From: Oscillospiraceae bacterium
GTDB taxonomy: Bacteria > Bacillota > Clostridia > Oscillospirales > Acutalibacteraceae
Assembly (NCBI GenBank): GCA_009777055.1
Contig: WRMQ01000001.1
Span: 11,141 to 75,140, forward strand
DNA: 64,000 bases
Direction of reading: 5' to 3'
A program made the translations under genes and the position numbers. Positions within the stretch are counted from its first letter, which is position 1. The number at the start of each line of letters is the position of its first letter. Shown here one piece after another: positions 9,535-49,141 of this stretch. The notes below the pieces were generated by a model. It did not search any database, was not told the DNA's origin, and saw only the letters and a program-made list of their open reading frames with translations.

Positions 9535-9705
9535 TTACCCAACGGGCAGCACCGCGAACAGATCACTGAAAAAGTTGATCACGAAGGCAAAGGCGCTGAT
9601 AATCGGCGCCAGAAGATCGTAGACAAAGGTGTTTTTCTCGGTGATCCAGCCAAAGGTCGCGAAAAGATCGCTGAAGATGCCAAGTACTACTTGAATCAGT
9701 TCCAT
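9535..9705 (-). CDS. Small hydrophobic, acidic protein (56 aa)
   Basis: Too short for the ORF track. AAAGGAG lies 7 nt upstream of the ATG. Product is MELIQVVLGIFSDLFATFGWITEKNTFVYDLLAPIISAFAFVINFFSDLFAVLPVG. Confidence 0.5.
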   Translation of the reverse strand: MELIQVVLGIFSDLFATFGWITEKNTFVYDLLAPIISAFAFVINFFSDLFAVLPVG

Positions 9706-9740
9706 ATCCGGGCTCCTTTCATTTGTTGTTTGTTCTTTTA

Positions 9741-9899
9741 GATTTTCTTGCGAAATGGGTGCTTTTTACCAGCGGGCGCACACAGTGCGCCCCTACTATG
9801 AATTCTGCCTCAATTCGATATCAGCCCATCGCGAAGGATCATCGTAGGGGCGCACTGTGTGCGCCCGTTGGCAACCAATATCAATTTCGCAAGAGATCT
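9741..9899. repeat. REPIN-like inverted doublet (GTAGGGG + hairpin)
   Basis: Perfect 23-nt inverted arms: GGGCGCACACAGTGCGCCCCTAC (9774-9796) and GTAGGGGCGCACTGTGTGCGCCC (9844-9866). Imperfect complementarity extends to about 55 nt per arm. Confidence 0.7.
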
Positions 9900-10125
9900 T
9901 TTGTTTTCTTTTATTTTGCTGTGTTTTTATGATCTTATAAATTATAGCAAGCCCGGCGAAAAAGTCAATAGGGAAACGCCAAATTTGCCAAATATTCCTG
10001 AAACTGCCAGGATCAGCCCGAAAAAAGACCAGATTCTACTTTTTAGCCGATTATTCTCTTGACATTGCCCCGGAAGCTTGCTATGCTATAATAGAATAAT
10101 GTGTACATAACGAAAGGTGCGAAAT

Positions 10126-45642: not shown

Positions 45643-45669
45643 CCCGGGTGGCTTGCCAGCCACCCCTAC
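45643..45669 (-). repeat. Single REP-like unit (GTAGGGG + hairpin)
   Basis: Reverse strand reads GTAGGGGTGGCTGGCAAGCCACCCGGG. The stem is GGGTGGCT/AGCCACCC. Confidence 0.5.
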
Positions 45670-46033: not shown

Positions 46034-46954
46034 ATGTCTTTTTCCATCGCATCGCCCGCCCTTGCGCCGGCAGCCGCTTTGCTGTGCGCCATGCTGGAGA
46101 CGGATTCCGTGCCACACGCGCTGCTGATCGAGGGCGGCGCCTCCGCCGGGCGGAAGGAAGCGGCCCTCGCTCTGGCCAGGATTTTGCTCTGTGCCGCGCC
46201 GCGTTCCGCCGCGCCGGAAGCGGACGATGAGGCATCCATGTTCGGCGGCATGTCGCTGTTCGGCGGGCCGGAGGAAGCGCGGGAGCCGGAGCCCAACCAA
46301 ACACTGCCCTGCGGGGAATGCGCCCACTGCGTCAAAAGCGCGGCGGCGCACCCCGATTTTCGGCTTATCGAAGGCGGAACCGGCGCGAAAAGCTTTCACA
46401 TCGACGCCATCCGTGCCCTGCGGCAGGACGCCTATGTGCTGCCCAACGAGGCGGAGCGCAAGGTCTGCGTGCTCCACAACGCCCAGTCCATGACCACAGA
46501 GGCGCAAAACGCCCTCCTGAAGCTGCTGGAGGAGCCGCCCTCCCACGCCTGCCTGATTCTGACGGTACCGGCGCGGCGCATGCTGCTGCCTACGGTGCTT
46601 TCCCGGGCAACGGCGATTTCCCTTGGCGAGGCGGTGGAGGAGGCCCCCGATCCGGAGCGCGGGGCGCTCATACAGCGGCACGCGGAGGCCATCGCGGAGG
46701 CGATGCTGCGCCGCGGCGACGACTTCGCGCTGCTGGAGGCCACCGCCCCGCTGGAAGCCGAAAAGGGTCTGGCCCGGGAGGTTTTGCCCGCGCTGCGCCG
46801 CGCGCTGCACAAGCGGCTGACAGCCCCGGAGGAGGATCCGGAGCGCGTCATACGCTTGATTGACGGCATAAAAGAGCTGGAATTTTCCATAGAACGCAAC
46901 GCGAACAACAATCTGCTGCTGACAAGATTGGCGGCGAAAGGACTGGAGTCATAA
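46034..46954 (+). CDS. holB: DNA polymerase III delta-prime subunit
   Basis: PHALLIEG, Zn module CGECAHC, and a clamp-loader-like SRA motif (VLSRAT). Synteny darA-holB-ricT. Confidence 0.8.
   Translation: MSFSIASPALAPAAALLCAMLETDSVPHALLIEGGASAGRKEAALALARILLCAAPRSAAPEADDEASMFGGMSLFGGPEEAREPEPNQTLPCGECAHCVKSAAAHPDFRLIEGGTGAKSFHIDAIRALRQDAYVLPNEAERKVCVLHNAQSMTTEAQNALLKLLEEPPSHACLILTVPARRMLLPTVLSRATAISLGEAVEEAPDPERGALIQRHAEAIAEAMLRRGDDFALLEATAPLEAEKGLAREVLPALRRALHKRLTAPEEDPERVIRLIDGIKELEFSIERNANNNLLLTRLAAKGLES
46888..46942 (+). repeat. 55-bp direct repeat, copy 1 (inside holB 3' end)
   Basis: CATAGAACGCAACGCGAACAACAATCTGCTGCTGACAAGATTGGCGGCGAAAGGA is identical to 47467-47521. Confidence 0.9.
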
Positions 46955-47466
46955 TCCATTCTTTGGCACACGTTTGATATTTGCCCCGGCGTGCCAAAGG
47001 CGCGCCCTACCCAAGTTCGGCCAAAGGCCGTTGCCGGAAGGTGCTTTATGATATTTAGCGATGAGCTGCCAAGCAGAAAAGTGAATCGGGTGGATGCGGA
47101 TGATTACAGAAAAAGCGGACGCATCAGTTGTTGTAGACGCGTTTGTCGTGATGCCCAATCATGTGCATCTTCTTATCCTGATGTTGGATGACCATGAAAA
47201 TCCGCACCTCAGCCGTATTATACAGCAATGGAAGGGTTCAATATCCAAAAAAGCCGGTTTTCCGCTTTGGCAGCATAGGTTTCATGATCGTCTGATGCGC
47301 CGCGCGGACGAATACAGAAAAGCTAAGAATTATATCAGAAGTAATCCGGAAAGATGGAAGGGAGACTGCTTTTTCATATCGGAACAGGAACGGCCTTTGG
47401 CCGAACTTGGGTAGGGCGCGCCTTTGGCACGCCGGGACAAGAACAGTTCATTGCACATCGTTTATT
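46943..47466. mobile_element. RAYT/REP-type insertion: 48-bp perfect terminal inverted repeats around a truncated Y1-transposase gene
   Basis: IR-L 46985-47032 and IR-R 47389-47436 are exact reverse complements. Each contains GTAGGG next to a GC hairpin. The element is bracketed by the 55-bp direct repeats. Confidence 0.75.
47094..47414 (+). pseudogene. N-terminally truncated REP-associated tyrosine transposase (IS200/Y1 HUH family)
   Basis: HUH motif in DAFVVMPNHVHLLILM and Tyr motif in RKAKNYIRSNPERW. An in-frame TGA at 47082-47084 leaves only about 20 residues before HUH. Confidence 0.65.
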
Positions 47467-47521
47467 CATAGAACGCAACGCGAACAACAATCTGCTGCTG
47501 ACAAGATTGGCGGCGAAAGGA
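47467..47521 (+). repeat. 55-bp direct repeat, copy 2 (probable ancestral holB 3' end)
   Basis: Identical to 46888-46942. In the holB frame it would read IERNANNNLLLTRLAAKGF-stop. Confidence 0.9.
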
Positions 47522-47524
47522 TTT

Positions 47525-47607
47525 TAGATTTTAGACGTCAGACTTTAGACATTAGATGCTTGTTGGGCAGCAAAGTCTAAAGTCTAAAGTCTAAAGTCTA
47601 AAATCTA
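47525..47607 (+). repeat. Heptanucleotide array (AAGTCTA x4 + AAATCTA) forming a long hairpin with an upstream complement, abutting the ricT SD
   Basis: Array at 47573-47607. TAGATTTTAGAC (47525-36) pairs with GTCTAAAATCTA (47596-607), and GACTTTAGAC (47541-50) pairs with GTCTAAAGTC. SD GAAAGGA follows at 47608. Confidence 0.85.
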
Positions 47608-47620
47608 GAAAGGAAACTGC

Positions 47621-49063: not shown

Positions 49064-49141
49064 GTAGGGGTTCAAAAATTTGAACCCTCGAATACCAGCT
49101 TTTGTAAATTATCGCATGGGTTCAAATTTTTGAACCCCTAC
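49064..49141. repeat. REPIN-like inverted doublet (GTAGGGG + AT-rich hairpin)
   Basis: GTAGGGGTTCAAAAATTTGAACCC (49064-87) and its exact reverse complement (49118-41). Confidence 0.75.

Follow-up and report, generated by a model that had tools for sequence, protein, structure and literature searches.

A probable REPIN population and its RAYT-type genes in an Oscillospiraceae-like genome of the Clostridia

REPINs are small non-coding repeats thought to be copied by a domesticated transposase, the RAYT, and REPIN-RAYT systems are the best-studied example of a repeat population that persists in a lineage together with such an enzyme. To our knowledge, almost all of the work on these systems concerns the Gammaproteobacteria. 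TnpA-REP subclass 2.4 (equivalent to RAYT group 4) has been described from Cyanobacteria, Bacteroidetes 'and various phyla' (Quentin, Siguier, Chandler & Fichant 2018, PMC6006769). The REPs of this subclass are 'long', with three G-C pairs at the foot of the stem and with 'double foot' forms, the proteins carry the motifs NH[IVF]H, WQ and YIxNNP, and REPs are found inserted in frame inside the tnpA-REP genes (PMC6006769). Group 1 RAYTs have been mentioned in Clostridia (Bertels et al. 2017, PMC5581495), and a survey of > 80 species from 8 phyla makes no mention of Firmicutes or Clostridia (Di Nocera, De Gregorio & Rocco 2013, PMC3733652). The original prediction for the locus described here, which held that the REP-RAYT system is known mainly from Proteobacteria, is thus fair but incomplete, as subclass 2.4 occurs in other phyla (PMC6006769) and group 1 RAYTs occur in Clostridia (PMC5581495). 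In the literature searched, no description of a REPIN population from Clostridia was found.

The locus lies in a metagenome-assembled genome (MAG) of 2.53 Mb in 151 contigs, with 58.7% G+C, within a stretch of 64,000 nucleotides (contig C1:11141-75140) that is referred to as the window and to which all positions given without a contig name belong. The REPINs of this genome are a known kind of system found in a little-studied lineage of Clostridia. The element at 9741-9899 is very probably a REPIN, that is, a non-autonomous REP doublet that forms a long hairpin and is present in about 25 full copies plus deletion derivatives, with the RAYT-type HUH/Y1 nuclease encoded on contig C44 as its likely partner. 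The element is built as follows:

9741-9899, no strand: whole REPIN-type element, a family A copy, including the outer inverted arms; 25 full-length relatives at 84-91% identity (BLAST/nhmmer)
9745-9773, no strand: left outer arm, pairs with the right outer arm; 76-82% column conservation
9774-9796, minus strand: left REP, allele A1, with a GTAG foot, an 8-bp stem and a 3-nt loop; exact 23-mer, hairpin fold of -10.6 kcal/mol
9797-9843, no strand: 47-nt spacer separating the two GTAG feet; columns 94% conserved
9844-9866, plus strand: right REP, allele A1; exact 23-mer, with a CT dinucleotide 2 nt 3′ of the hairpin
9867-9895, no strand: right outer arm, pairs with the left outer arm

The two perfect inverted 23-nt arms of the original prediction, one on the minus strand at 9774-9796 and the other on the plus strand at 9844-9866, match each other exactly as reverse complements, and no such pair of 23-mers arose in 100 shuffles of the window. 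The flanking complementarity, put at about 55 nt in the original prediction, extends over inverted arms of 56 nt (9746-9801 and 9839-9894) that are 84% complementary and separated by 37 nt. The predicted unit of a 5-bp stem with a 4-nt loop gave way to a different fold, in which each REP of the window element consists of GTAG, an 8-bp stem (GGGCGCAC/GTGCGCCC) and a 3-nt loop. Folded as single-stranded DNA, the 159-nt element forms a single long hairpin of -53.5 kcal/mol, with a z-score of -11.35 against 200 shuffles. A chance palindrome at 9741-9899 was ruled out by copy number, the 23-mer being present in 27 exact copies genome-wide.

BLAST with the element as query recovered about 60 loci including fragments, and several family A loci are found at contig ends, indicating that the repeat breaks the assembly. 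Aligned copies share a layout of about 160 nt that runs from an outer arm through a REP on the minus strand, CTAC, the 47-nt spacer, GTAG and a second REP to the other outer arm. The core of 93 nt is made up of REP, 47-nt spacer and REP, with both GTAGs pointing inward. Among the 25 full-length copies, the two feet (GTAG/CTAC) are 100% conserved, the hairpins 95-98%, the spacer 94%, the outer arms 76-82% and the flanks 43-48%; this fall from core to flanks makes the boundaries of the element clear and identifies the core as its constrained part. The inverted arrangement that had been noticed at a single locus is a fixed property of the family, since a spacing of 47-48 nt and the same polarity are found in 18 of 18 intact doublets.

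Family A REPs occur as two alleles that differ by compensatory changes, A2 with the stem top ACC/GGT and A1 with CAC/GTG. Stem tops across the family were CAC/GTG in 27 cases, ACC/GGT in 24 and ACC/GGG in 2, and there were no hybrids. Both A1 and A2 hairpins are followed 2 nt 3′ by a CT dinucleotide that lies within a conserved GCTGG/ACTGG. Of the 18 intact doublets, 15 combine A2 with A1, always in the same polarity, and two are A2/A2, leaving the window element as the sole A1/A1 doublet. The window copy is atypical of its family in this respect, and its perfect 23-nt arms are the exception rather than the rule; it probably became a perfect A1/A1 palindrome through conversion of one arm on the other.

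No two cores of family A are identical: pairwise identity averages 92.6% (range 84-99%, maximum 98.9%), which implies an old population without a recent burst, and any movement of the family appears to have been slow. Derivatives of family A include REP-less shells, single hybrid hairpins, half elements, and tandem arrays in which another linker replaces the outer arms. The shells, which are about 67 nt long and consist of outer arms only, are found at six or more loci, among them C73:948-1011, C131:2093-2148, C22:18410-18477, C29:20897-20928 and C25:24757-24789, and may either have formed by deletion or represent the ancestral carrier of the doublet. At C63:9867-10121 a family A doublet lies between two facing family C REPs, an arrangement that may be a nested insertion. 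Arrays of TTAGAT/TTAGAC adjoin the ends of several family A copies (on contigs C6, C25, C48 and C84).

The immediate surroundings of the window copy contain three further features:

9535-9705, minus strand: 56-aa ORF with a ribosome-binding site (RBS), directly downstream of the element; called as a gene in another assembly
9726-9740 (left) and 9899-9913 (right), plus strand: imperfect 15-nt direct repeat abutting the element, 80% identical
9941-9968, minus strand: promoter-like site upstream of the element, matching 11/12 consensus positions, with an extended -10 TG

If the promoter-like site is functional, the element would probably sit in the 5′ leader of the 56-aa gene. Pfam gave no match for the 56-aa ORF or for any of four flanking proteins. 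No terminator-like site or T-tract follows the hairpins at the element, and a tRNA was the sole Rfam match in the window at gathering thresholds, with no Rfam family for the element. An 8-nt core of the 15-nt flanking repeat is exact, and its register is that of a 12-nt repeat beside the family A copy on C57.

The GTAG-hairpin arrangement extends well beyond family A. Perfect hairpins with a stem of at least 7 bp next to GTAG number 205 in the genome as opposed to 3-13 in composition-matched genomes simulated with Markov models of order 1, 3 and 5, an over-representation that bears out the REP-type reading of the original prediction. Under slightly narrower settings, 1852 perfect hairpins (stem of at least 7 bp; 3704 feet) were scored for the 4-mer at the foot; GTAG, with a background frequency of about 0.18% in the genome, ranked first with 182 occurrences, the next 4-mer reaching 66, and the stem opens with GGG in 177 of these 182 hairpins. 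In all there are about 240 GTAG-footed hairpins (REPs) in the genome, a lower bound because the bulged stems of one family are missed by scans for perfect hairpins. These REPs are mostly extragenic, with 32% in stop-to-stop ORFs of at least 600 nt (a crude proxy for genes) as against 87% of random sites. At least five families have the GTAGGG(G)...CCC grammar in common, with compensatory changes in their stems:

Family A1 and A2: 27 and 27 copies (54 REPs); the family of the window element
Family B: 3 copies
Family C: 11 copies
Family D: about 145 copies (132 exact to a degenerate pattern); GTAG feet mostly outward, spacing variable, some 'double foot' single hairpins
Family E: 22 exact copies, about 30 in all; bulged stem

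The reversed control of the family D pattern had no match in the genome. Covariation in family D is pronounced, with T-A in 85 copies, C-G in 52 and a mismatch in 5 (137 paired vs 5 unpaired), and no RAYT gene adjoins family D in this fragmented assembly. Three further sites in the window at which the same grammar had been predicted proved to belong to three other families. One is the decayed family B structure described below, with REPs at 46988-47010 and 47411-47433, and the other two are:

45646-45669, minus strand: solitary family C REP with a GTAGGGG foot and a different stem (fold)
49064-49141: family D REP doublet, 49064-49087 (plus strand) and 49118-49141 (minus strand), GTAG feet outward

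A search of the genome with Pfam PF01797 (Y1_Tnp) gave four matches, three of them over the cut-off. The intact RAYT-like gene that the original prediction had suggested seeking elsewhere in the genome is present three times (on contigs C44, C107 and C85), the C44 gene being joined to family A, and a fourth, decayed gene lies inside the window. All four match NF047646 (REP-associated tyrosine transposase) with E-values from 2e-19 to 2.4e-13, far better than they match the IS200 model; the best has E 2e-19 against NF047646 vs 1.5e-3 against NF033573 (IS200). None of the four reaches the NCBIfam equivalog cut-off of 80 bits (69.9, 58.2, 50.2 and 53.7 bits), and to judge by these profile scores they are distant members of the family, not equivalogs of the proteobacterial enzyme. 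The four paralogues are divergent, with no identical duplicates, and their closest relatives are encoded in MAGs of Clostridia (Oscillospiraceae and Acutalibacteraceae; termite, rumen and gut bins) at 34-51% identity.

The C44 protein is 158 aa long, and its only significant sequence match in the PDB is E. coli TnpA-REP (4ER8). An AlphaFold (AF2) model built from 41 homologues (pLDDT 88.9) likewise has 4ER8 as its top Foldseek match (E 1.1e-8, TM 0.62), followed by the ISDra2 and IS608 transposases. The HUH motif (NHIH), the WQ motif and a Tyr aligned with E. coli Y115 are all kept, and H81, H83 and Y139 are invariant across the 41 homologues. The GTAG contacts of E. coli TnpA-REP are W94, Q95, E100, H101 and R104 (PMC6006769); at the five aligned positions, the C44 protein has W, Q, D, H and R. 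Two of the five contact residues are missing from the C107 protein, and likewise two from the C85 protein. The Tyr motifs of the RAYTs in this genome read YIEMNP, YINTNP and YIRSNP.

On C44 the stop codon of the RAYT gene leads directly into 44 nt of family A spacer, beyond which come a GTAG-A2 REP, an array of four tandem 61-nt units and an entire doublet. On the 5′ side of the gene no more than 10 nt of the outer arm can be recognised, and a family A REP is therefore present on one side only. The spacer and REP joined to the 3′ side of the gene indicate that the gene occupies the place of one REPIN arm. In the array itself (L001:1886-2110, 3′ of the RAYT), each 61-nt unit runs from the loop of an A2 hairpin into the array linker, which places every array junction inside a hairpin; the array could be a product of replication slippage at the hairpin or a footprint of the nuclease. 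The C107 RAYT has 55-nt inverted repeats with a degenerate foot, and just upstream of the C85 RAYT, which is next to dnaA, there is a perfect 33-nt inverted pair of family E (L003:1050-1318).

The fourth gene lies within a REPtron, here a RAYT gene between inward-facing REPs, that has decayed:

46981-47032: left inverted-repeat arm of the decayed REPtron, containing a family B REP at 46988-47010 (minus strand)
47094-47414, plus strand: decayed RAYT gene; NF047646 E 2.1e-14, profile positions 42-133
47389-47440: right inverted-repeat arm of the decayed REPtron, containing a family B REP at 47411-47433 (plus strand)

The two arms are 52 nt long and 98% complementary, with the family B GTAG feet facing inward. 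The HUH, WQ and Tyr motifs are still present in the gene, but some 45 residues ahead of the HUH strand are gone and the frame is broken upstream; 47094-47414 is a pseudogene. The original prediction had listed the surrounding inverted repeats as a further site, with no mention of the ORF between them. A species of the same genus has an intact RAYT between inward-facing REPs, in the same layout as the decayed copy (L093). The decayed RAYT element lies between two 60-nt direct copies (46883-46942 and 47462-47521; 97% identical) of the 3′ end of a holB-like gene, and on the upstream side this gene keeps its complete C-terminus. Directly after the duplicated holB end, at 47522-47610, there is an inverted pair of heptamer arrays with units like TTTAGAC and AGTCTAA. 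Such heptamer arrays could be a preferred target or part of the element termini.

By analogy with the TnpA-REP proteins of E. coli, S. maltophilia and Marinomonas (PMC8266576, PMC3479197), the RAYT would bind the folded REP on single-stranded DNA, the GTAG foot being read for recognition and for the choice of cleavage site. The enzyme would cut the CT dinucleotide beside the hairpin to form a 5′-phosphotyrosine link, and strand transfer would then copy the whole doublet to new extragenic sites at a low rate. Family A itself may be a RAYT-less deletion derivative of a REPtron; its doublets have the inward layout of REPtrons, which fits an origin by loss of the gene.

Target duplications are not expected from HUH/ssDNA transposition. 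Direct repeats of 5-12 nt, in one register, flank three of the 11 family A copies with both ends intact (8 nt at the window copy on C1, 12 nt on C57 and 5 nt on C28), and an 11-nt repeat flanks the REP-less shell on C131. These repeats, together with the shells at six or more loci and the terminal inverted repeats of at least 17 nt that the outer arms make, would suit a classical MITE mobilised by a DDE transposase, with the outer arms as its binding sites, the direct repeats as target-site duplications and the REP hairpins as passengers. However, most copies have no flanking repeats, those that do occur are of variable length, and repeats of at least 8 nt arise in 4.5% of mismatched flank pairs examined as a control. 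The outer arms are also the least conserved part of the element (76-82%) and are replaced in some array copies, whereas conservation of the REP-spacer-REP core is 94-100%. The shells are explained equally well by deletion between short direct homologies, and with no pair of terminal repeats 300-6000 nt apart in the genome, no autonomous parent is visible. Movement by a DDE transposase is thus very unlikely. The variable-length duplications at REPIN copies and at the decayed REPtron, along with the C44 RAYT and its 61-nt array, might alternatively be footprints of replicative RAYT/REP insertion through template switching or fill-in of a fork gap. We know of no description of such a target-duplicating route for HUH/ssDNA elements and consider it doubtful; if it were true, the birth of a REPIN from a REPtron would have been caught in one genome.

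An origin from an IS200/IS605-type insertion sequence, with the REPs as its ends and a conventional TnpA-IS200 instead of a RAYT as its transposase, draws on the common fold, on the IS608 and ISDra2 transposases as the next Foldseek matches and on Pfam PF01797, which spans both groups. It is extremely improbable, since for all four genes the RAYT model outscores the IS200 model by far and 4ER8 is the top match in sequence as well as in fold. The genes also diverge from one another and occur once each, unlike the identical copies of an IS, and a GTAG foot directly at the hairpin is a hallmark of RAYT/REP systems (PMC8266576). The age of the family A copies (mean core identity of 92.6%, none identical) would also fit a now-immobile structural or regulatory element, for example an mRNA leader or trailer hairpin, that is kept by the host and whose RAYTs are inactive relics. 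The position of the window copy between a strong promoter-like site and a small ORF is in keeping with such a role, as are the published REPs reported to affect mRNA stability and termination (PMC3733652) and the two intact RAYTs that are each without two of the five GTAG-contact positions. Yet the hairpins have neither a terminator-like T-tract nor an Rfam match, and the intact C44 RAYT retains every catalytic and contact residue. That the GTAG foot is 100% conserved although it does not pair speaks for recognition by a protein rather than a mere role in RNA stability. Retention by the host, unlikely on these grounds, is moreover compatible with a RAYT origin and hence provides no alternative origin for the element.

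The REPIN population appears to be narrowly distributed. Searches of 40 related genomes, among them those of 15 congeneric species, recovered no copy of the family A element or of the family D REP, and the matches that did occur, in three genomes, were REP-sized only. RAYT-like genes are patchy, present in 13 of 41 genomes and in 7 of 15 within the genus. A metagenome scan with the REP plus 5 nt returned a single contig, JAEIGA010296422.1, from another organism, on which A2-like and A1 hairpins are adjacent with their GTAG feet outward (L092:805-855); the allele pair is thus not confined to the source species. At RAYT loci of other genomes, from Clostridia and other phyla (L005-L084), GTAGGG hairpins are present at 71 of 80. 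An in-frame plus/minus pair of GTAGGG hairpins that flanks the HUH motif lies inside the RAYT ORF in 42 of 56 homologous ORFs (e.g. L011:1498-2010), and its sequence varies from species to species. None of the four RAYT genes of this genome contains internal REPs. At the window copy, the identity of the neighbouring 335-aa protein to its counterparts in congeneric species does not exceed 41%, which makes an intergenic comparison with their empty sites meaningless. The only other assembly recovered, ERZ27257348, matches the window at 99.99% identity, with both the REPIN and the decayed RAYT in place; it represents the same strain and is uninformative on insertion polymorphism.

This genome provides a compact example, from uncultured Oscillospiraceae-like Clostridia, of five co-resident REP families with one common foot. 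Its four RAYT paralogues are in different states, with one intact and joined to a REPIN family, two with altered GTAG contacts and one decayed. The genome is thus a natural system for questions such as which hairpin each enzyme serves and how a REPtron gives rise to REPINs. These repeats also explain many of the contig breaks in this MAG.

The REPIN-RAYT system of P. fluorescens SBW25 (Bertels & Rainey 2011, PMC3116915; PMC3337134) resembles the one described here in that inverted REPs with a short spacer form one long hairpin, extragenic copies number from tens to hundreds, and the family is restricted to one species. In both, the partner RAYT is joined to the same REPs and the copies form a diverged 'population' and not a set of identical copies. 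Unlike SBW25, the host here is an Oscillospiraceae-like MAG of the Clostridia with a RAYT of a different subclass, the family A doublet is larger (a 93-nt core, about 160 nt with the outer arms), and its arms are normally two different co-varying alleles in fixed polarity.

By their motifs, the RAYTs and REPs of this genome are like those of TnpA-REP subclass 2.4. The likeness comprises the NH[IVF]H form of the HUH motif, WQ, long REPs with three G-C foot pairs, and the double foot GTAG...CTAC (here in family D), and extends to homologues in other Clostridia that have in-frame REPs inside the gene. In contrast to subclass 2.4 REPtrons, the four genes here are without internal REPs, and their Tyr motif departs from YIxNNP at one position and also resembles that of subclass 2.7 (Table 1, PMC6006769), so that the subclass assignment is a matter of motifs only. 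E. coli REP/BIME and its TnpA-REP (RayT/YafM, 4ER8; PMC3479197; PMC8266576) provide the best PDB match by sequence and fold, the conserved catalytic HUH/Tyr and GTAG-contact residues, and a GTAG foot 5′ of the hairpin. Protein identity to E. coli TnpA-REP is only 26%, however, and the E. coli REP stem is bulged, with the bulge needed for activity, whereas family A stems are perfect over 8 bp (family E is bulged here). The REP-Sm/TnpA-Sm system of Stenotrophomonas maltophilia (group 3; PMC8266576) has an identical REP format of 23 nt, with GTAG, a perfect 8-bp stem and a 3-nt loop, but differs in RAYT subclass (2.5) and phylum. TnpA-Sm cleaves CT next to the hairpin, and the CT located 2 nt 3′ of both alleles here is the predicted cleavage site. 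Finally, the genome fits the GTAG-tagged REP superfamily (PMC3733652), as family A doublets are of the TT type (GTAG termini inside) and family D doublets of the HH type (outside), and several families occur side by side in the genome, as they do in that superfamily, where each has its own REPtron.
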